Positions 11,682-50,250 of a stretch of 64,000 bases of DNA are shown here, piece after piece (positions within the stretch are counted from its first letter, which is position 1; every line of letters begins with the position of its first letter). The notes beneath the pieces were generated by a model. It did not search any database. It was not told the DNA's origin and was given only the letters and a program-made list of their open reading frames with translations. Source of the stretch: an uncultured Bacilli bacterium (GTDB lineage: Bacteria > Bacillota_I > Bacilli_A > RF39 > UBA660); contig CATNCE010000002.1 in assembly GCA_950097225.1 (NCBI GenBank), positions 76,105-140,104 on the forward strand, written 5' to 3'. Both the position numbers and the translations under genes were made by a program.

Positions 11682-11757
11682 AAAGAAACACTCCCTATAA
11701 AAAAGCTATATGCAGTGAATGCATATAGCTTATCTTTCATCTGCTACTTTAATTATA

Positions 11758-40200: not shown

Positions 40201-41952
40201 CTATACACCCTCATTATTAATTAGTTGTTTAATCTTTCCACAAGAGCGTTTGCCCTCATTACAGATATGCTTTGTCTCACAAGTCGGACCTAAGATGCTC
40301 GCATAAGCTTCCGTTCCTGGGATATTTTTTACAAGGTTGTGGATGTTATGGGCCATGGCTCTGGTCTCCCATTGTGAACAAGCACACTCACGAGCTTCAA
40401 GAATATGACGGAGAGTTTTTCCATCAAGAGTGGTAACAATATTACACATATTTCCAGATAGAGTAAAATAAACTAAATCACTATCGCATACTCCGTACTC
40501 ATTTTTGAAAGTATCATACATTTTTTTATTATCAGCATAGATGCTATCGTATATTTCGGATAATTTAGCACTTTTTTCGATAGCAGGAGGTGTTTTATAT
40601 TTAAGTAAGTCACCAACTGGATAAAACATTGGAACGGCAATCGGATGTGTACGATGACGAGTAAGATGCGTTAATACGGCGTAAGAAAGCGCTATTTGGA
40701 ATGTAAAGCTAACTTGAGCAAGCTCGGTCCCATCGTCTAAAAAGGCAAGTGTCTTCATCAATTTATATTTGAAGTCTGGATCTTCTTGTTTTATTTTTTC
40801 ATATAAAGCTATAGCATCTTCTTTAGGAAACTCATAGGTGCGCATAATAGCTGTAATTATAATAGTATCGTCAATGTTTTTAGAATGATCTATTAATTTG
40901 GGCTCATCAATAATTTCATACTCTTTATTTTGGACAAATGGATCTAACATTTCACGAACCGAATTCTTTTCATTTGCTTTTACAGCATCAATTTCGTCGA
41001 TGATATATGGCGTATGAACCTTAGCTATCTCGTATAATTTTTCTCCTAAAGCTTTTAATTCAGCAATTTTGGCATATTTAGTCTTAGTTAATTTAATGAT
41101 AAGATCTTTTAAAGTATGAGCATCAATTCCCATAAAAAAGTTAGAATAAAAACAATATGGAGCAACAAATCTGGCATCCTCAGGAAGAATATTACTCTCT
41201 TGCAAGTATAAACATTTTGAGAATAATTCTTGCATGTGTTTTATATATTCACTCTGTAGTTTAGCATTTTCTGGATGGGTGTTGCCCGCTTTGTCGCGGA
41301 AAGTTGGAACATAAAAGCCGGAGTTTGATACATCAACTTCACGACGTGATTTTACAGTGAATGAGGCAAAACGCTCTTCTATTAAGGTTTGTTCAACTAT
41401 AGCAGATACCTCATTCATCGCAAAAACTAAGTAGTCATGATCAGAAACAGAGTCATGCTTGAAACTAAGAATATTTTTAGCCGTCTTGAGATTTTTAGCA
41501 AAGCTTCTCGCATTAAATTTTTCAATAATATCAAATACTGTTCCTGGATGTCTTGATAGGCAACCAGCAGATGCTACTAAATTAGTGCGTTTTTCTCTTT
41601 CTAGCCTCTTAATGGTTTCAATAACATCACCTTCTAGGTCTTTAAGGTAGGCATTTTGATCATGCAAACCATTTATTAAGATATCAATTTGACTCGCTAT
41701 ATCGGCATCGTGATTTTCTAAAAGGATCTTTATTTGGGCAAGACAGCTAAGTGCATATTCCCCATACTCCGATTCGTCTTCTTTTAGGGACTCCTCTAAC
41801 TCGTTAATTTTGTTTATAATAACAGCATTATCAATCGTTTTTGATAGTAACGCGATTATGTTGTTATTGTTATTTATTATAGTTTCAACCCTTTTATTCA
41901 TGTAAGATGCTAATTCATTATAATTAATAGCACCAACTAATTCTATTCTCAT
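40201..41952 (-). CDS. Long ThyX-like (flavin-dependent thymidylate synthase fold) protein
   Basis: C-terminal region TRHRTHP... and LRHILEARECACSQWETRAMAHNI align with the ThyX motifs RHR... and LRxDSHAQWEIRxYA. It is 583 aa, more than twice the length of a canonical ThyX. The RHRxxSxxxxSxR serine motif is not evident. Confidence 0.5.
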   Translation of the reverse strand: MRIELVGAINYNELASYMNKRVETIINNNNNIIALLSKTIDNAVIINKINELEESLKEDESEYGEYALSCLAQIKILLENHDADIASQIDILINGLHDQNAYLKDLEGDVIETIKRLEREKRTNLVASAGCLSRHPGTVFDIIEKFNARSFAKNLKTAKNILSFKHDSVSDHDYLVFAMNEVSAIVEQTLIEERFASFTVKSRREVDVSNSGFYVPTFRDKAGNTHPENAKLQSEYIKHMQELFSKCLYLQESNILPEDARFVAPYCFYSNFFMGIDAHTLKDLIIKLTKTKYAKIAELKALGEKLYEIAKVHTPYIIDEIDAVKANEKNSVREMLDPFVQNKEYEIIDEPKLIDHSKNIDDTIIITAIMRTYEFPKEDAIALYEKIKQEDPDFKYKLMKTLAFLDDGTELAQVSFTFQIALSYAVLTHLTRHRTHPIAVPMFYPVGDLLKYKTPPAIEKSAKLSEIYDSIYADNKKMYDTFKNEYGVCDSDLVYFTLSGNMCNIVTTLDGKTLRHILEARECACSQWETRAMAHNIHNLVKNIPGTEAYASILGPTCETKHICNEGKRSCGKIKQLINNEGV

Positions 41953-42111: not shown

Positions 42112-42915
42112 TTATAAGCATCCCTTTAGCAAGTTATTTAAATTACGGCGATAAAACTCTAATATATTAGCCTTTTTTACATCTTTTTCTACAGTTAAAT
42201 TGTATTCGCTTATCTTAGTGTCGTTAGCATATATTTGAACTTTTCCAACAATGTCCCCTACTTTTACAGGAGCAGTTACTTCTTCTTTAATAATTTCATA
42301 AGAGTAATTGTATTCATCGAGGACATTAACTAAATCAACGGCATCCTCTTGCAATTTTAATTTGACTTGAGGAATGCTACCAAAAGAAACGTTTGTATAA
42401 CCAAGATCGGCATTTTTGTCTAAAATAGTTTCTAATTTAAAATTAGCAAATCCATAGTTAAGCATAGTAATGATATCTTGATTACGTATTTTGTTATCTG
42501 CTTCTCCCATTACAACTGCTATTAGGCGCATATTGCCACGTTTAGCAGTTACAGTTATACAATATCCTGAATTACTAGTATATCCCGTTTTTAAGCCATC
42601 TACTCCATCATAATAATTGATTAACTTATTAGTATTGACGATCCAAGTCTTATTGCCATTAGGATGCTCAACATAATCTTCATATATTGATGAATACTTT
42701 AATATCTGCTCATGTTTAATTAATTCAAGTCCAATCATTGCCATATCATAGGCTGAAGAATAATGGCCTTCTTCATCGAGTCCATGAACATTTTTAAATG
42801 CCGTATGCTTTAACCCTAACTCAGAAACTTTTTCATTCATGAGACGCACAAATTCAGTTGTTGAACCAGCTATGTGTTCAGCTAGGGCAACAGCAGCATC
42901 CCTCGCTGTTACCAA
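42112..42915 (-). CDS. C-terminal fragment of an interrupted D-alanyl-D-alanine carboxypeptidase (PBP5-type, S11) gene
   Basis: (TTG)VTARDAAVALAEHIAGS...KTGYTSNSGYCIT... contains the KTG motif and the PBP5 C-terminal domain. It lacks the N-terminal SxxK part, which is found at 52329..52724. Confidence 0.8.
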   Translation of the reverse strand: MVTARDAAVALAEHIAGSTTEFVRLMNEKVSELGLKHTAFKNVHGLDEEGHYSSAYDMAMIGLELIKHEQILKYSSIYEDYVEHPNGNKTWIVNTNKLINYYDGVDGLKTGYTSNSGYCITVTAKRGNMRLIAVVMGEADNKIRNQDIITMLNYGFANFKLETILDKNADLGYTNVSFGSIPQVKLKLQEDAVDLVNVLDEYNYSYEIIKEEVTAPVKVGDIVGKVQIYANDTKISEYNLTVEKDVKKANILEFYRRNLNNLLKGCL

Positions 42916-44566
42916 AAAGCAGTAAAAAATCGTTTAAATTTAAGCTACTATTTTCGTAGCTTTTTTTTGAATCTATAATATTTAATTTAAAATGTAACAT
43001 AACTTTTTGAGTTTCACTATCCTCATCTTCTATTCTTTCTACAAATATATTATCTATTATTGAAGATACAATGCTAAATATTGATTCATCATCAGACATA
43101 ATTATATTCTTAATTTTATTTTCAAAATCATTTATGTTGGAGTCACAATCTATTTCTTCATTTTTTTCAAGATAGTATTCTTTCTTTTTATTTAAGTTTT
43201 CTATTTCAATATTGTACTTCTCTTTTGCATTGGTATATTCTTCCCCATCAAGTTCTTTTCTAGCTCTCATATTTATTAGTTCAGCTCTTGCTTCCTTTAT
43301 TTCTGCAATTTTCAAATCGAGTTCTTGAAGTTGCTTAGAATAATCAGTTTTTGTGTTATATTCATTAATTAGACTATAAATTTCACTTATTAATTCTTGT
43401 TGATTTTTCATAATGAAACTTAACATTTTTTTAAATATATCTAATAATTCTTCGTAATGAATTATTGGAGTACTACAACCATTTTTTTTATGTCGACCAT
43501 ACTTCCTATAATTTGAACATCCCCAAAAATTACTTTTTATTCCTGTTTTCTTATTTTTGTAGCATCCTTTAACAAATGTAGCCCCATCATGAAAACATTT
43601 AATTTTTCCTGATAAGGCATATTTGCTATTTGTTGGTGTCTTAGTTTCGTAATTTTTTGAATTTTTACGTAATATTTTGTTACATTTTTCCCATAATTCC
43701 TCTGAGACAATCGGTGGGCATTTCTCATGGTCTTTAAATGTTACCCATTCTTTTTCATTGAATCTAACCCTTTTTTTGCTATGGTAATCAATTACACTTT
43801 CTTTATGTCCGCAATAAAAACCTTTGTATTTTGGGTTTCTAATGATCCTAGCTATAGCAGTACTCGATAATGGTTTATTAGTTTTACTAACTATGTTGTA
43901 CTCATCATATAGATGATGTCCAAGTTTGCCTGTTCCCATTTGCCCCTTAGAGTATTCATTGAAAATAAGTCTTACCATTTCAGCTTCGTCTTCTACAATA
44001 ACTAATTTTCCTTTATCTTTTTTGTATCCATAGATATTGTTATTTCCAATTACAACACCTTTTTCAACACTTCTTTTTAATCCAAATCTTACTCTTTCTG
44101 ATAATTTCCTGATTTCATCTTGAGCAACACTAGCCATAATTGTTAATCTTAATTCTGAATCTGGATCAAAGGTGTTAATATTGTCATTTAGAAAATAAAT
44201 TCCAACATTATATGACAGTAGTTCCTGACTATATTGTATACTATCAACAGTATTTCTTGAAAAACGAGATATCTCTTTAGTTAGAATAAGATCAAACTTT
44301 CCTTTTTTTGCATCTTCAATCATTCTCAAAAAATTATCTCTCTTATTAACACTAGTACCACTAATACCTTCATCAACATAGCCAGGGACATAAATCCAGT
44401 TCTCTTCCGATTTAATATAATTTTCAAAAAACATTTTTTGATTTTCTAAAGAATTTAATTGAGCATCTTGATCTGTCGAAACTCTTCCATAGTATGTTAC
44501 TCGTAATGGTAAACTATTTAGTCTTTTTCCTTGTGATAATGCATTTCTGATAGCATACAAATTCAT
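42878..44566 (-). CDS. Large serine recombinase (resolvase-domain integrase)
   Basis: Catalytic YYGRVSTDQD, recombinase domain, a Cys-rich zinc ribbon (CFHDGATFVKGC...WGCSNYRKYGRHKKNGC) and a C-terminal coiled coil. The last roughly 12 codons read across the att junction into dac-derived DNA. Confidence 0.9.
   Translation of the reverse strand: MNLYAIRNALSQGKRLNSLPLRVTYYGRVSTDQDAQLNSLENQKMFFENYIKSEENWIYVPGYVDEGISGTSVNKRDNFLRMIEDAKKGKFDLILTKEISRFSRNTVDSIQYSQELLSYNVGIYFLNDNINTFDPDSELRLTIMASVAQDEIRKLSERVRFGLKRSVEKGVVIGNNNIYGYKKDKGKLVIVEDEAEMVRLIFNEYSKGQMGTGKLGHHLYDEYNIVSKTNKPLSSTAIARIIRNPKYKGFYCGHKESVIDYHSKKRVRFNEKEWVTFKDHEKCPPIVSEELWEKCNKILRKNSKNYETKTPTNSKYALSGKIKCFHDGATFVKGCYKNKKTGIKSNFWGCSNYRKYGRHKKNGCSTPIIHYEELLDIFKKMLSFIMKNQQELISEIYSLINEYNTKTDYSKQLQELDLKIAEIKEARAELINMRARKELDGEEYTNAKEKYNIEIENLNKKKEYYLEKNEEIDCDSNINDFENKIKNIIMSDDESIFSIVSSIIDNIFVERIEDEDSETQKVMLHFKLNIIDSKKSYENSSLNLNDFLLLFGNSEGCCCCPS
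42897..42932. other. Recombinase-proximal att junction (attL-like)
   Basis: Minus strand cgaTTTTTTACTGCTTTTTG-GTAACAG-CGAGGGATGC. The same GTAACAG core occurs at the other junction. Confidence 0.6.
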
Positions 44567-44579
44567 ATTCTGATACCTC

Positions 44580-44789
44580 CTATCCTCCTATTGGTATTTC
44601 AATTATTAACTGTTCTAAATCCTCTATTGATTCTTCGTTTTTACTTATTTTTTTTATTTCTTCGTCTAATTTTTTTATAATATTGTTATATACGGCAAAT
44701 TCGATTACTTCTTTTTTATAAAGTTCATTAACTATAGCTTTTTGCAAAACCTTTTTTGCAATGTCAATAGTATAACCATCCTTTACCAT
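44580..44789 (-). CDS. Small protein co-transcribed with the recombinase (candidate recombination directionality factor)
   Basis: 69 aa starting at MVKDGYT with a CAGGAGGAG RBS. The stop lies 11 nt upstream of the recombinase ATG. Confidence 0.35.
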   Translation of the reverse strand: MVKDGYTIDIAKKVLQKAIVNELYKKEVIEFAVYNNIIKKLDEEIKKISKNEESIEDLEQLIIEIPIGG

Positions 44790-44898
44790 TAAGCTCCTCC
44801 TGTTTAAATTTATTAACAAATTTAAAAAAAAGAACTCTAATATTGAGTTACAAATTATTCAAAAACTCAATATTATTGATAAAAGACAGTTATTCTAT

Positions 44899-44936
44899 GC
44901 ATTGCTATATAATATTAAGTTTTCAAATAGCAATGC
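44899..44936. promoter_or_regulatory. Perfect 10-bp inverted repeat GCATTGCTAT-N18-ATAGCAATGC upstream of the small-ORF/recombinase operon (candidate operator)
   Basis: Read directly from the sequence. The spacer contains TATATAAT. Confidence 0.4.
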
Positions 44937-44947
44937 TTTTTAATTGA

Positions 44948-45520
44948 TTAAAAAAGACTTTTCTTAAATTGCTTTATTCTATAAGCTAAATCAAATCCCG
45001 TATAATTAAAATTCAACTTTTGGTTAGAAATATTTTCTTTAAAGTATGTATTATTATCATACCTAATAAATATTTCTCCAAGAATATCTAACTTTTCATT
45101 AAAAGATAAATTTTCAAATTCTGATATTATTTTTTTTATAGTTTCTTTATACTCAATTCCATAGATATTCCCATTTTCCTCATAAATCTTTTCTTCTTTA
45201 TTTATAGAATTATAAATTGTCATATTAGATTGTAAAAAAATAAGTTCAAATCCATCTGTTATATTTATTGATTGCATATTAAATATATTAACTTCATCAT
45301 CTTCTACTAACATTGGATTAGTTAAGTTTTTGCTATTAATCTGATTGTTAATCAAGCACTCAGATATATACAATAAAAATTGCATTTTTTCTTTATCACT
45401 TTTTTCTTCTAAATTCTCTATTAATTGTTTTTCTTTTTCCGTTGTTTCTGTAATATACATATATTTTCCTCCATTCATATTAATTGTATAGTCCAATATG
45501 TTTTTAGCCGTTTTAAGCAC
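44948..45520 (-). CDS. Hypothetical protein (element cargo)
   Basis: 190 aa with no motif. Confidence 0.4.
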   Translation of the reverse strand: MLKTAKNILDYTINMNGGKYMYITETTEKEKQLIENLEEKSDKEKMQFLLYISECLINNQINSKNLTNPMLVEDDEVNIFNMQSINITDGFELIFLQSNMTIYNSINKEEKIYEENGNIYGIEYKETIKKIISEFENLSFNEKLDILGEIFIRYDNNTYFKENISNQKLNFNYTGFDLAYRIKQFKKSLF

Positions 45521-45812
45521 TTTTTCTTGTTTTGACTTACATCTATCTTTGCTCGATCATTACTCCGTACAAAACAAGTGAAAAATATTAATTAATCCAA
45601 ATTCCACCCAAATCATTTATCACTTAAAAAAAAATATTTTTGCAACAGTTTTTTTTCAAAAAAATATTTTTCATCTTTCCATAGCATTTTCATCTGTTTT
45701 ATTTTTATAATTTATTTCAAAATCAAAGTCATCTTCTATGTCATTGTTTTCCATTTCTAGATTTTTTTGTTTAATATCTTTATTATAATCAATTATATTT
45801 TCAGACTTTGAA

Positions 45813-47222
45813 CTATTCTACCCCGTGTGTTCCTAATCTCAAACTAATCGCTTCAGCAGTTTCTTGAGTGTTTGTTTTTAAGTAAGCAAGACCACAGTTA
45901 TCTTGTATGATTTGACTTACTTCTTTTCCATAAAGATTATCTAATTGAGCAAATGATTGTAAAAAGAATTGAAATTGCATACCACGACTTCGTGCTACTG
46001 ACACAATAGTTTCAATATCGGAAAGTGGTGGTGTATTCGCGAATTCATCTAATAAAAAAACAAGATCATATGGTAGTCTCTTGTTTGGTTGTTCGTTACA
46101 TAGTAAAACTAAGGTTTTATATATTAAAGAAACAATTATTGATACTAAAGCATAATAAATTTTTGATTCATCAGGAATACAACAATATAGCACAGTTGTT
46201 TGTTTTCCTAATATATTAAAATCAAAATCAGAATTTGATGTGATATTTTCAACATTAATGTCATCAAACAAAGTCATTCGTTCATTAAATATTGATGTTA
46301 TACTTTTATATGTATTTTCACTTGTAGATATAATAGGAATCAATTTATCTTTACTTTTTAAACCATAAGGTTTAGATTCAACATATTTTCTTAGTTTTTT
46401 TAAATTTGTCTCAGTCATAGAACTATTTTGAAATTTTTTTTATTGATGATAAAGTAATTTGTTCTCTTTTTATTTTACCATCAGCATAATCTTCTAAGAA
46501 TAATGCAATAATCCCATATAATAAATCACTTGCACTATTATTCCAAAACGCTTCTTTAGCAGTTTTATCTTCCATAATCATAGTAGATAATGAACTTATT
46601 AATTGATTACATTCGGCCAAATGTTCAATAGACTTATTTAGATAATTCATTTTTTTAATCCCATCAGTTTCTTCTATACTTAATTTATCGTTTTCAGTAA
46701 ATAACTCATATTCTCTTATTATTGGTTCTAAAATATTTAAATGATTTGATAAACTAGGATTTCTAAAATCTAGCGTTAAAATAGTATAGCCATTATCTTT
46801 AAACATTTGACTTGTTGTAGAAAATATTTCTCCTTTTGGATCAGTTATAAAGACACTTTTTTTAATTTGAGCATTAGCTATAAAACTGCATTGAGGAATA
46901 ACTGCTGTTACTGATTTACCAGAGCCAGTTGAACCTAAGTAAATCCAATGAGGTGTTTCAATATCAAACCATACTTTTTTCTTATCTCTAGAAAAATAAA
47001 CTGGAAATCCACTTTTTTTTAATTATCTATTTTCTCTTTATGAAAAGTATCATTTATTTCATTTTTAGTAGCCCATCGTGCAGAACCATGCTCATTATTA
47101 TTTTTAATCTTTTGTCTTGATATAATAGGTTCAAGTAAGTATAAAAATGCAATAATTATAATTATGACAATTATAATTACTATATAAGCAGCATCCATCA
47201 CACTATCTTTCCATATCGTCAC
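45813..47222 (-). pseudogene. Fragmented type IV coupling protein (VirD4/TraG/TcpA-like) in at least 3 frames
   Basis: 47019..47222 carries the TM segment and GSARWA motif. 46423..47001 carries the Walker A LGSTGSGKS. 45813..46418 carries the C-terminal LLDEFAN...SRGMQFQFFLQSFAQL. Stops and frameshifts separate the pieces. Confidence 0.6.
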
Positions 47223-47386
47223 ATTTTTTGTAGTATTCTAAAAACTCTTCTACACCTTTAGGATCATACTCTTTTAAAACTTCTAAATTAATTTCTGCTC
47301 TATTATAATGTCCCATATTATATTGAACTGGAGTTCCGATTTCTTCAACAATCTTTTTTCTTTTAACAAAGAAATAAAATCGTTAG

Positions 47387-47813
47387 CTAAATCATCAGAT
47401 AAAAACACTTCATTTTTGTCGTCAATACTAACTTCTGGTAGATTATTGTAATGTCTCCATATAATTCTTCATACTCATTACCAATTCCTACGTAAAGTCT
47501 ATCATTATTGTTGTATCTAGCAACTACTAAATACAACTCTTCATCATCTTTAACGAATAACTTTTTCATTATTTTTAACCTCACTATCTATTATGCTTTC
47601 AAAAAACGTATTTTCATTTTTTAAAACATCTAATAACAATCTATTGCAATCTTTTTCAATAGTATTCTTTGTGTTTTTTATTTTTGTTTCTAATTTACTA
47701 ATTTCTTTTTCATTATTTTTAACTTTATTTTTTATATTTAAAATTATTTCGTTATACTTGCTTATAGTATTTTGCATATTTGCAAATTCTAAATTTAATT
47801 TTGAAAAGTCCAT
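47387..47813 (-). CDS. Two small overlapping hypothetical ORFs (coiled-coil protein 47550..47813 and 47387..47584)
   Basis: ORF track only. Lys/Glu-rich coiled coil. Confidence 0.3.
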
Positions 47814-47967
47814 ATTTTCTCACCCTTTTATTTACCTTTCTATATCATTTTCAATATTTTTGTTTAGATTTTTAATAAATTTATCATATATGCTACCTGG
47901 ATAATTACCAACTTCCATCTCATAAATACAATTGACTAAAGATTCTAAATCTTTATTTGGAAATACT

Positions 47968-48195
47968 TCATCTAATATTTTTTTTATTATTAACAAAACT
48001 ACTAACATCAATTACTACTCTATCTTTTAGATCATCAATTACTTCAACGTTTTCAACAAAGTATTTATGAAAAAAATCATAATTATTTGTAATGTCTACT
48101 TTAGTTAAATCCATTCCAACTCCAAAATCATAAACATTATCAATTAAATCTACACATCGAAAATTATTATCATCAATTAGTTCTACTAATTTCAT
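47968..48195 (-). CDS. Small hypothetical protein, preceded by a translationally coupled ~53-aa unannotated ORF (48196..~48360)
   Basis: A TAATG stop/start overlap is present at the junction. Confidence 0.3.
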   Translation of the reverse strand: MKLVELIDDNNFRCVDLIDNVYDFGVGMDLTKVDITNNYDFFHKYFVENVEVIDDLKDRVVIDVSSFVNNKKNIR

Positions 48196-48643
48196 TAACG
48201 ATCAATCTCCATTTCTTTTTGTTTTTTTGAAAATACTATATAATCATTCATGTAATTTTTAAAATTATATATATAATCTTCATAACTTTTGCACTCGTCG
48301 TATTCTTTAACAAAGTTATTATCACCAGTTATTTCTAATTTTTCTTCTTTATTAATAATACCTCTCCTCTCTATTATTTATAATCTTATTAACTCTTATA
48401 AAAATTGAAGTTTGTTTTTATAATACATTTTGCTTTATCTAATACTTTTTTTATTTTGTTTATTTAACAGACATATAAAAAGACCAGATTAAATAATCTG
48501 ATCTAATTGATAAATTGTATTTTATTTAACATCGTTATAAATTTAAAAACTAAATATTTCTATAATAATTCCAAAACATGGTTCGTTGCCTAAAATATCA
48601 TCTAACTTTAAAGTCATTCTAAATAATCCTTATAAAAATATTT

Positions 48644-49465
48644 TTAATATGATAAGGTTTCTAATATTTCTTCAACTCTAAAGTGAGTACTATCAGAATC
48701 CCAATTACCAAAGAACGATAAGTCAAAGAAGTACGAAATATTATCATAATCAAATTTTACTATACAATGTTTACTATGATTAGTAAAAATAAGTAAAGCA
48801 GATGTTTTCAAATTTTTAATATAATATTCTTCAGTTTGACTATCTCCTCCTGTAAAAAATGAATACGAATAATTCTCCTTGATATCTTCTGTAGCAAATT
48901 TAGTTTTAAAACTAAATGACATATTGAAAAATTCTATTTTCCAATCATCAGGCAGATTGGTTTGAGAATTTAAGTTACTGTTGGTAAAGTTCTCTATACC
49001 AAATGAAGCAGCAGCAATTTTATTATTAACTTTTTTAGTTGTTCTTTGATGAAGCAAATTATTACCAAAATAGCTACTTTTTAACAACTTAATTTTTAGC
49101 AAACCTTCCAAATCTTCATAGCTATAATAATTGTTATATTTACCATTCTTATCTAATGATTCTCGTTCAGCTTCAGGAATATTTGCATCATAATCTATTT
49201 CAGCAATAGCATCAGAGTACATATCTAATGCTCCCTTTTTATCATTCATCTTGAATCTAAAAGTATTGAATGTACTTACTATTTCCTCAGCATAAACTAT
49301 GCCAATCATACAAATCATAATTGCAAAACAACTTATTATTATTGGTTTTAAAATAAATGACTTCTTTTTAGAATCTAATATTTCTGTCATAATCTCGTTG
49401 CTTCTTGAATCGGATATTTTTATCTTATTAAAAACTTCTTTTGTTTTTTTGTTTAATTTATTCAT
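48644..49465 (-). CDS. Putative anti-sigma factor (single-pass membrane protein)
   Basis: 4-bp overlap with the ECF sigma gene. Short cytoplasmic N-terminus, one TM helix (ILKPIIISCFAIMICMIGIVYA), then an extracytoplasmic domain. Confidence 0.45.
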   Translation of the reverse strand: MNKLNKKTKEVFNKIKISDSRSNEIMTEILDSKKKSFILKPIIISCFAIMICMIGIVYAEEIVSTFNTFRFKMNDKKGALDMYSDAIAEIDYDANIPEAERESLDKNGKYNNYYSYEDLEGLLKIKLLKSSYFGNNLLHQRTTKKVNNKIAAASFGIENFTNSNLNSQTNLPDDWKIEFFNMSFSFKTKFATEDIKENYSYSFFTGGDSQTEEYYIKNLKTSALLIFTNHSKHCIVKFDYDNISYFFDLSFFGNWDSDSTHFRVEEILETLSY

Positions 49466-49467
49466 AT

Positions 49468-49941
49468 TTATATTATCTCCATTTCTTTTTTTATTTTATC
49501 TTTTACTCTAGTAAGCCGCGATTTGACAGCACTTTCTGATAATTTCATAATTTTAGCAATTTCTTTTGCATTGTATCCTTCATAATAATGTAAATAAAAA
49601 GGTATTCGATATTTTTTATCTATTTTAGATAATGCTTGTATCAAATCTTCTTTTTCTAAATTTTGCTTATTTGAAATAATAACATCAAAATTTTCACAAT
49701 TTGTCTTTTTCTTCTTCCAAAAAGATTTTAATAAATCTTTTGACTGATTACTTGCAACTTTAAATAGCCACTTTTTTGTGTATTCCTCATCTTGTTTTAG
49801 TTTATTTATGTTTTTGTATAATTTTATAAATGTTTGTTGCATAATATCCTCTGCATCTTGAAAATTAAGTGTATAACCATAAGCAAGTCTATAAACATCA
49901 TTGTGATATTTTTTAAATAATTCTATAAATAAATCATCCAT
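49468..49941 (-). CDS. ECF-type sigma-70 family RNA polymerase sigma factor
   Basis: Region 2 (VYRLAYGYTLNFQDAEDIMQQTFIKL) and region 4 (YEGYNAKEIAKIMKLSESAVKSRLTRVKDKI). Confidence 0.8.
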   Translation of the reverse strand: MDDLFIELFKKYHNDVYRLAYGYTLNFQDAEDIMQQTFIKLYKNINKLKQDEEYTKKWLFKVASNQSKDLLKSFWKKKKTNCENFDVIISNKQNLEKEDLIQALSKIDKKYRIPFYLHYYEGYNAKEIAKIMKLSESAVKSRLTRVKDKIKKEMEII

Positions 49942-50250
49942 AATTCATCCCCTCTAAAAGAATGTAAAAAATAGATTGTGTTGGTATATTTTTTACTTCA
50001 TTTTTTTAACTTCTATCTGTTTCTACTATAATAACGATTCAAATAAATAAAAAGATGCAAAAAAGGATGTAAATTCATCCTTTTTTATTTATCCTTGAAA
50101 ATGTACACCTTGCATATTATCGTAGTATGAAGCATAAGTACTATTATCAAATTTAACAACTCCGCAATTGATAATTTACTCTTCCACAATTAAATCATTA
50201 TGATTATAAAAGAGTTCATTTCCTTCGTAATAACTAAGTAATTAAATTTT

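Follow-up and report, generated by a model that had tools for sequence, protein, structure and literature searches.

A 9455-bp serine recombinase element within the dac gene of an uncultured Bacilli bacterium

The interrupted gene and its empty counterparts

The window considered here is a stretch of 64,000 nucleotides from an uncultured Bacilli bacterium (GTDB group RF39; contig CATNCE010000002.1 of assembly GCA_950097225.1, positions 76,105 to 140,104). Within it, dac, a gene for a D-Ala-D-Ala carboxypeptidase (Peptidase_S11), is split by an element that carries a gene for a large serine recombinase (LSR) at one end. The element occupies 42901..52355 of the minus strand, 9455 bp, its exact placement being ambiguous within a 4-bp core. 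An earlier, sequence-only reading of the window had recognized the LSR gene at one end of the dac-splitting insertion and had seen that the element's ends carry inverted repeats of the kind used by serine integrases, with the sites lying inside coding sequence. We find the same, but at different boundaries.

The interrupted dac and all genes of the element lie on the minus strand, except for one open reading frame (ORF) of no assigned function at 51424..52173. Sequences are written in minus-strand (dac-sense) orientation unless marked (+). The recombinase-proximal junction, at about 42.9 kb, joins the P arm to the B' arm, and the recombinase-distal junction, at about 52.35 kb, joins the B arm to the P' arm. 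The features that define the insertion are:

52354..52691, minus strand: 5' part of dac, with signal peptide and SxxK motif, through the Asn of Ser-x-Asn (Peptidase_S11 profile positions 12-109; tblastn match of Dac residues 1-116)
42112..42900, minus strand: 3' part of dac, from the Asp codon on, with the C-terminal half of Peptidase_S11 (profile positions 103-237) and PBP5_C
42897..42900, minus strand: shared core GATG (CATC on the plus strand) at the proximal junction (P/B'), from comparison with empty sites L001-L008; crossover GA at 42900-42899
52352..52355, minus strand: shared core GATG (CATC on the plus strand) at the distal junction (B/P'), from the same comparison; crossover GA at 52355-52354
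42878..44566, minus strand: LSR, 562 aa; its ORF crosses the proximal junction, the last six codons and the stop being host DNA antisense to dac

The two pieces of dac overlap in profile coordinates (12-109 and 103-237). A search of 5.8 billion protein clusters brought up intact orthologues of Dac, nearly all of the full-length ones listed being 374 aa long and a few 363-377 aa. Among these are P0001 and P0002, which agree fully or almost fully with the Dac that the sequence-only reading had rebuilt for the window but lack seven of its residues, DVAVTAR. Their contigs yield eight empty sites from the same species, and all eight read ...GCATCTGCTAAT-GATG-CTGCTGTTGCC.... The distal junction matches the empty site as far as GATG and then departs from it; the proximal junction matches from GATG on. 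Removing 42901..52355 produces a 374-aa Dac identical to P0001, and the window so edited forms with L001 one collinear block of 13.1 kb at 99.71% identity, with no duplication of the target.

Occupancy of the site is thus polymorphic within the window's species, and the flanks, 99.7% identical to those of genomes with an empty site, suggest that the insertion, or its loss in the others, was very recent. Since the element separates the SxxK motif from the Asp and everything downstream of Ser-x-Asn, Dac should be inactive while the element is present, and precise excision would be expected to restore the protein.

Attachment sites and the crossover dinucleotide

With these boundaries, attP becomes a site of 50 bp, TACTGCTTTTTGGTAACAGCGAGG-GA-TGTCGCTGTAACAGAAAAGCAGTA, that is, two 24-bp half-sites about a central GA, and attB becomes TCAGTAGCTATAGCATCTGCTAAT-GA-TGCTGCTGTTGCCCTAGCTGAACA, lying over the Ser-x-Asn-Asp codons of dac. 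The strings that would be diagnostic of the window's sites are GCGAGGGATGTCGCTG for the attP junction and CTAATGATGCTGCTG for the restored attB. The half-sites, together with the two copies of a 7-bp string taken up below, are:

42901..42924, minus strand: P half-site of attP, TACTGCTTTTTGGTAACAGCGAGG, which also encodes the last conserved LSR residues, F-L-L-L-F-G-N-S-E
52330..52353, minus strand: P' half-site of attP, TGTCGCTGTAACAGAAAAGCAGTA, the same in L011, which was inserted independently in a different species
52356..52379, minus strand: B half-site of attB, TCAGTAGCTATAGCATCTGCTAAT, dac codons ..S-V-A-I-A-S-A-N, identical in empty sites L001-L008
42875..42898, minus strand: B' half-site of attB, TGCTGCTGTTGCCCTAGCTGAACA, dac codons (D)-A-A-V-A-L-A-E-H, identical in empty sites L001-L008
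42906..42912, minus strand: first copy of GTAACAG, inside the P arm, -12 to -6 from the crossover
52340..52346, minus strand: second copy of GTAACAG, inside the P' arm, +8 to +14 from the crossover

The attP so defined is symmetric about GA at 19 of 24 positions, and no other centre within 4 bp, even or odd, reaches more than 10 of 24. For 20,000 random 50-mers drawn from the element, the count is 7.4 +/- 2.3, with a maximum of 16. The window's attB is only weakly symmetric (12/24). Much the same is found in the 16 complete and independent attL/attR pairs available to us, where symmetry ranges over 14-19/24 for attP and 6-12/24 for attB. The P arm has the consensus ACTGCTTTTTAGTAAC..C.A. over 60 loci, with near-invariant outer bases, and the P' arm, reverse-complemented, has the consensus ACTGCTTTTT.G..AC.AC.ACA.

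Relatives of the element come from a scan of one genome per species, which gave 80 LSR loci, their junctions found by anchoring on the Asp codon of dac. Besides the window's own pair, 60 proximal and 15 distal junctions were recovered, and GA is central in every one. All 61 junctions next to relatives at least 50% identical to the window's LSR lie at the same position of dac; where such a relative has downstream sequence, dac follows directly, from residue about 108-113. Relatives that are 42-46% identical are not followed by dac. The elements of the 16 pairs are 2055 to 10,774 bp long.

In three loci (L011, L049 and L070), GA is the only dinucleotide common to both junctions. Those of L011, for example, are GCGAAT-GA-TGTCGC and GCGAGG-GA-CTCAGC, and an intact attB of the L011 type, GCGAATGA|CTCAGCTG, is found in relatives L097-L099. 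As far as the comparison of sequences goes, these three pairs fix the crossover at GA. The dinucleotide is non-palindromic, as polarity requires, and is the dyad centre of attP; it also makes up positions 1 and 2 of the Asp codon after Ser-x-Asn, which would make it invariant in any functional dac. In the published model of LSR sites, attP is pseudo-palindromic, with 25-bp half-sites about a central dinucleotide (PMC3783163). Judged by sequence, the sites given here agree with that canonical model feature by feature, leaving aside the zinc-ribbon register of attB, which codon periodicity obscures (discussed below).

A different placement had been proposed by the sequence-only reading: crossover within a 7-bp core, GTAACAG, an attP of 29 bp (TACTGCTTTT-TG-GTAACAG-AAAAGCAGTA), and an attB that is a perfect 15-bp palindrome in dac, which would give TCGCTGTAACAGCGA in the uninterrupted gene. 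The repeats that recommended it are real. CTGTTAC(+), or GTAACAG(-), occurs exactly at both 42906-42912 and 52340-52346, and the 10-bp inverted arms are exact as well, AAAAGCAGTA(+) at 42915-42924 being the reverse complement of TACTGCTTTT(+) at 52330-52339. The two repeats differ, however, in what they are worth. Between two random 60-bp pieces of this sequence, a direct repeat of at least 7 bp is expected by chance with P = 0.36, and the 7-bp core therefore carries no weight. A 10-bp inverted repeat would arise in the same way with P of about 0.01 and is moreover conserved across the family: it is real, and it is the outer third of the P arms. Each P arm contains GTWAC, and it is by happenstance that both arms of the window's element read GTAACAG, hence the direct repeat. 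The P' arm of relatives often has GTTAC instead (e.g., L026), so it is the inverted symmetry about GA that is conserved, not the direct repeat.

The boundary at GATG lies 10-11 bp from the supposed core at each junction, 21 bp in total, and this distance accounts for the sites that had been reconstructed. The 29-bp attP is what remains of the true 50-bp attP once the 21 bp at its centre are taken out. Inserting these 21 bp of element DNA, TCGCTGTAACAGCGAGGGATG, into the true attB gives the palindromic attB; the palindrome itself is not host DNA but a fusion of the inner parts of the P' arm (TCGCTGTAAC) and the P arm (GTAACAGCGA), and it is palindromic because the P arms are inverted repeats of each other. 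Joining at GTAACAG does give the palindrome TCGCTGT-A-ACAGCGA, although it is centred on the first A of AA and not on the base in the middle of the 7-mer. The two dyads do have one base in common, as had been claimed, but the shared centre is a by-product of fusing arms that are mutual inverted repeats. The 21 bp are missing from all eight empty sites, and neither the predicted attB nor the predicted attP string occurs in any of loci L001-L099. Finally, a crossover at GTAACAG predicts a Dac of 381 aa, reading ...SANDVAVTARDAAVALAEH... with the extra DVAVTAR right after Ser-x-Asn, whereas the orthologues of the same species have 374 aa. Alignment with uninterrupted orthologues thus puts the boundaries of the insertion elsewhere, the very outcome that the earlier reading had named as its refutation.

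The recombinase, the small ORF upstream and the cargo

The other features of the element that bear on its nature are:

44580..44789, minus strand: conserved small ORF of 69 aa (counted from ATG), separated by 13 nt from the LSR gene downstream
45813..47222, minus strand: VirD4-like type IV coupling protein (CD1115 family), in at least three broken ORFs, with Pfam T4SS-DNA_transf / TraG-D_C matches on the fragments
42899..45431, minus strand: recombination module in common with L011, 2533 bp at 98.7% nucleotide identity (blastn of the two elements)
52218..52355, minus strand: distal stretch in common with L011, 138 bp at 97%, with the P' arm, an A+T-rich motif, a hairpin and a T-run

The LSR matches the Pfam families Resolvase (PF00239, 8.8e-32, residues 25-171), Recombinase (PF07508, 1.1e-18) and Zn_ribbon_recom (PF13408, 7e-08), as well as phrog_95 (integrase) of PHROG at 2.7e-109. 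Residues R28, S30, R101 and R104 of the catalytic region are invariant in 32 homologues. A model built by AlphaFold2 (AF2) from these 32 homologues has a mean pLDDT of 66 and contains long antiparallel helices (410-435 and 441-470), in blocks mostly at 85-90, which are predicted to form a coiled coil. In Foldseek searches with this model, full-length SPbeta integrase complexes come first (E 1e-19 to 1e-21, about 554-572 aligned columns), followed by the PhiC31, Bxb1 and Listeria LI integrases (overall E 1e-21 to 1e-11). By sequence, the nearest solved structure (2e-39) is 3g13, a catalytic domain from a recombinase of a C. difficile conjugative transposon. By profiles and model together, the protein has the full architecture of large serine recombinases: catalytic domain, recombinase domain, and zinc ribbon with coiled-coil insert.

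More than 100 relatives of the LSR are found at cluster level, with 63-72% identity. Their C-termini share ...LNLNDFLLLFSN.. and then end in variable tails rich in Cys and Ser, such as GCCCCPS. The tails are the Ala/Val codons of dac (GCN GCN GTN GCN; D-A-A-V-A-L-A-E) read in the frame of the LSR, one base off that of dac. They are, then, not a protein motif; rather, a tail reports which attB variant an element occupies. In 6 of 61 elements the crossover GA supplies the last two bases of the stop codon, TGA, several others stop earlier, and the tails vary freely; the C-terminal tail is dispensable. For the same reasons, it is unlikely that the exchange of tails on integration serves as regulation. 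A 35-aa tail in the predicted excised form looks conserved as well, but this reflects a conserved DNA motif that elements with a closed frame have too.

The last conserved codons of the LSR tell something different. In relatives with at least 59% identity, the Leu/Phe codons TTA CTG CTT TTT hardly vary, and the few changes that do occur are all nonsynonymous. Synonymous TTG and TTC are present in the clade with 52-54% identity, and the adjoining GAT/GAC position varies freely. This conservation of codons in the P arm points to a constraint from attP at the level of DNA.

Some observations on the LSR stand apart. The 90%-identity cluster to which it belongs (P0241-P0251) has 12 members, the commonest being P0242, a protein of 555 aa found on 101 contigs and ending in FLLLFSNSK. 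If its stop is TGA, as in the six relatives from the genome scan, then it too would be formed with the crossover GA. The lineage is widespread in public metagenomes. Among annotated relatives in plasmid and phage collections (50,697 phage records), none exceeds 45% identity; MT837325.1, at 40%, looks like an unrelated high-GC genomic fragment without the FLLLF motif at the C-terminus. Also, a terminator-like hairpin with a T-run lies at 42942-42962 (+) of the window, inside the 3' coding end of the LSR gene, oriented against transcription entering the element from the host side.

The small ORF is a nearly constant companion of the LSR. In 83 of 86 loci, the clade outside dac included, a homologue of 60-70 aa precedes the LSR on its strand at a distance of 11-23 nt, and in the three exceptions the same motif is present in one frame. 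In the minimal element L053 (2055 bp), it is the only gene besides that of the LSR. No family match was found for it in Pfam, PHROG, NCBIfam or PADLOC. By analogy, it is a candidate for an accessory or directionality factor, and the best candidate for a partner in excision. One might go further and tentatively suppose that the helical ORF and the LSR make up a self-sufficient "serine insertion module", the small protein being a previously undescribed family of directionality factors or an obligatory partner of the LSR, co-evolving with it across the clades within and outside dac; this is possible, though we consider it rather less than even. The sister LSR clade L075-L092 (42-46% identical) keeps the homologous small upstream ORF, with no dac adjacent.

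The cargo is a mixed collection: an ECF-type sigma factor (49468..49941) with a probable anti-sigma partner (48644-49465), two XRE regulators that match phage repressor families, and several ORFs of no assigned function. The best match to the coupling protein, conju_CD1115 of NCBIfam (1.4e-43), covers only profile positions 204-377 of 442, and the broken gene is decayed conjugation cargo. No relaxase or other transfer gene was recognized in the element, and relatives of 2-6 kb are likewise without transfer functions. Where an integrative conjugative or mobilizable element would have intact transfer functions, such as a relaxase, a coupling protein and a T4SS, the window's element has only the fragmented coupling protein of the CD1115 type. 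No phage structural, packaging or lysis genes were found in it, a look for defence systems among the cargo gave generic helix-turn-helix matches only, and Rfam had no match anywhere in the window.

L011 offers an informative comparison. Its LSR is 99% identical to that of the window and its P and P' arms are identical, yet its host is a different species, with a Dac only about 72% identical. The two elements share only the proximal 2533 bp and the distal 138 bp, the rest being unrelated; the recombination module thus moves between species and swaps its cargo. More generally, the elements are 2-11 kb long, with interchangeable cargo. They also stack: L009 (10001-16482) has two LSR elements in tandem in one dac, and the junction between them (~11690-11740) is a P/P' hybrid symmetric about GA, TACTGCTTTTTAGTAACAACGACA-GA-TGTGGTAGTGATAAAAAAGCAGCT, effectively, to judge from its sequence, a natural attP-like site in a chromosome.

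Other observations concern the cargo, the distal end and the host gene. An ECF sigma factor with an adjacent putative anti-sigma factor is also part of the cargo of L011 (7645-9052), which is otherwise unrelated to that of the window. A conserved A+T-rich motif, TATTAYTRTAARTTNTATATATAA (52218-52285 of the window, minus strand), is found 75-135 bp inward from the distal end and recurs in L011, L056, L070, L028, L033 and L027, elements with quite different LSRs; a hairpin and a T-run follow it in the window, L011, L056, L028 and L027. The motif may act as a terminator against read-through from dac, or else as a regulatory site; a consensus scan did not call it a sigma-70 promoter. The same dac genes have a second hotspot, after W-x-V-N-T-N-K at residue about 205. 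In L042 (11930-13771) it holds a different, shorter serine recombinase (415 aa) and a 102-aa ORF within 1.8 kb, flanked by a 12-bp repeat, AATACTAATAAA, and with inverted arms of its own; L038 (4326-13026) is another locus with this hotspot, and the match to dac stops at residue 206 in L014, L016, L023 and L026.

The neighbours of dac at the empty sites stand in the same order as in the window: a radical-SAM gene, a LysR regulator, dac, thyX, an RDD-family gene and nusB. The adjoining thyX (40201-41952 of the window, minus strand) codes for a protein of 583 aa, roughly double the normal length, in which there are two distinct Thy1 stretches, and a Thy1 gene of similar length (576-611 aa) occupies the same position at empty-site loci of the window's species and of related ones.

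Mechanism, alternatives and known systems

The interpretation that we favour, with a probability of about 0.85, is that the 9455-bp element was inserted in dac by its own LSR, at the GA of the Asp codon following Ser-x-Asn. We infer that the LSR catalyses recombination between attP and attB at these sites. By analogy with characterized serine integrases (PMC3783163), dimers of the LSR would bind attP and attB and then synapse, both duplexes would be cut at GA, the nicks staggered by 2 nt, half-sites would be exchanged through rotation of one pair by 180 degrees, and the strands would be religated. This would leave the hybrid junctions observed at either end of the element and no duplicated target. 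Run backwards, the reaction would give back an exact dac; it would probably need a directionality factor, for which the small ORF is the best candidate.

Several considerations weigh against this interpretation. Recombination was not observed, and an excised circle, or attP junction, was not found in JGI metagenome contigs or viral contigs: the pattern TACTGCTTTT-N14-GA-N15-AAAGCAGT has four matches in metagenome contigs, all due to chance and none of them next to an LSR, and no match in viral contigs. Nor does exact look-up in a collection of 15 billion proteins turn up the LSR predicted for the excised form (590 aa), in either the window's or L011's version. The window alone allows any dinucleotide of GATG, and the choice of GA rests on comparison and on the centre of the dyad. 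A zinc-ribbon motif 5 bp nearer the centre in attB than in attP, as the LI integrase model leads one to expect, could not be made out; comparing the outer 10 bp of the P arms with the B arms gives peaks at shifts of 2, 8 and 11 and none at 5. The peaks have a period of 3, evidently a codon artefact of repeated Ala codons that hides the zinc-ribbon register. The single-sequence AF2 model of the small ORF, three helices, is of low confidence (pLDDT 64.8). Lastly, the cargo is partly decayed, as the coupling-protein pseudogene indicates, and the window's copy may be less mobile than its relatives.

That last point leads to the alternative that fares best, though we think it unlikely: the window's copy may be a fixed, immobile remnant and dac permanently inactivated in this strain. 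A coupling-protein gene in at least three pieces, the lack of any recognized relaxase or other transfer gene, and the failure to find a circular junction among metagenome and viral contigs are what one would expect of a remnant. But neither the LSR nor the small ORF is damaged, L011 has exactly the same P and P' arms, and flanks so close to those of empty-site genomes speak of a very recent change. Relatives of a minimal 2 kb, moreover, show that the integration module needs no cargo.

It is considerably less probable that the element is a regulated switch like skin or SPbeta, excised under a developmental or stress programme to rebuild the carboxypeptidase. Precise excision would indeed restore an intact Dac, an LSR with a small ORF resembles an integrase with a small directionality factor, and the same gene is targeted in dozens of species. 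The hosts of the LSR relatives, however, are uncultured gut Bacilli, "Mollicutes" or "Tenericutes", known as metagenome-assembled genomes, with chromosomes of about 1.3-1.5 Mb (two complete ones are 1.34 and 1.52 Mb), and dac lies between the LysR regulator gene and thyX, not in the context of a sporulation operon. Occupancy is polymorphic within a species, and many species have only empty sites. Interchange of cargo and tandem stacking are what selfish elements do, as opposed to domesticated switches.

Slightly more doubtful still is that we are dealing with a prophage remnant or a phage satellite with a phage-type serine integrase. The strong match of the LSR to phrog_95 and the resemblance of the XRE regulators to phage repressors could be read that way, but structural, packaging and lysis genes are lacking from the element, the only recognizable mobility cargo is a conjugative coupling protein of the CD1115 family, the best match by sequence to a solved structure is a recombinase of a C. 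difficile conjugative transposon, the phage records contain no close relative of the LSR, and the related elements measure only 2-11 kb. As for crossover at GTAACAG, its two exact repeats notwithstanding, the eight empty sites leave it hardly any credence.

Integration by the element's own LSR has consequences beyond this locus. The dac-targeting LSR elements all use as their landing pad one invariant sequence, that coding for part of an active site, and they form an abundant family of very small LSR elements (2-11 kb) with swappable cargo in small-genome gut Bacilli that are poorly known. They provide a well-defined, orthogonal pair of sites: a 50-bp attP and an attB in the Ser-x-Asn-Asp codons of a DD-carboxypeptidase, with GA at the crossover. 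With them come over 100 variants of the LSR and dozens of attB, all natural, as usable material for studying, or engineering, the specificity of serine integrases. The correction of the sites may also be of use, as it illustrates how a near-palindromic motif in each arm of attP can leave a short direct repeat at both ends that mimics a core.

No paper that connects a serine recombinase with dac, or with an attB in a D-Ala-D-Ala carboxypeptidase gene, turned up in full-text searches of the literature available. We regard the family as a large and new one but of a known kind, and the mechanism as not new. Among its counterparts are skin, in sigK, and SPbeta, in spsM, intervening elements excised by an LSR with a small directionality factor. 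As in those cases, an LSR element interrupts a coding gene, precise excision would restore the gene, and a small protein is encoded with the LSR. Unlike them, the hosts of window-type elements give no evidence of developmental control or sporulation, and their elements show polymorphic occupancy, swapped cargo and stacking.

In the order of its domains, the window's LSR is like the integrases of Listeria A118/LI (Rutherford et al. 2013, PMC3783163), SPbeta, PhiC31 and Bxb1, although identity to the solved integrases (SPbeta, PhiC31, Bxb1, LI) is only 12-22% and the window's element is not a phage. Sites of the A118/LI type likewise consist of a pseudo-palindromic attP of ~50 bp with half-sites of ~25 bp, a non-palindromic dinucleotide and a less symmetric attB, with conservative insertion. 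A difference from A118/LI is that, in the window's element, the P arm and the 3' end of the integrase ORF are one and the same DNA; the 5-bp zinc-ribbon shift in attB could not be demonstrated.

The clostridial transposons Tn5397, with TndX, and Tn4451/Tn4453, with TnpX, are further counterparts: like the window's element, they are small, non-phage LSR elements of Firmicutes, and the GA at the crossover is also that reported for TndX (PMC4430133). The link to conjugative transposons is shared as well, by way of the CD1115 coupling-protein relic and the C. difficile recombinase structure, and the catalytic domain of TnpX matches the window's LSR weakly (1.2e-08). TndX-like enzymes, however, are multi-targeting, and most carry DUF4368 (bioRxiv 10.1101/2021.11.05.467528), whereas the window's LSR has no DUF4368 match and its family has a single target, dac, at all 61 junctions of relatives at least 50% identical. 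A single conserved target and the lack of DUF4368 place it with the site-specific LSRs of Durrant et al. The targets highlighted by that study are an ATP-dependent protease and a prolyl isomerase, and the word "carboxypeptidase" is absent from its text (bioRxiv 10.1101/2021.11.05.467528). In the site-specific clusters described there, as in the family described here, diverged LSRs (52-99% identical to the window's in our case) share one site in one gene.

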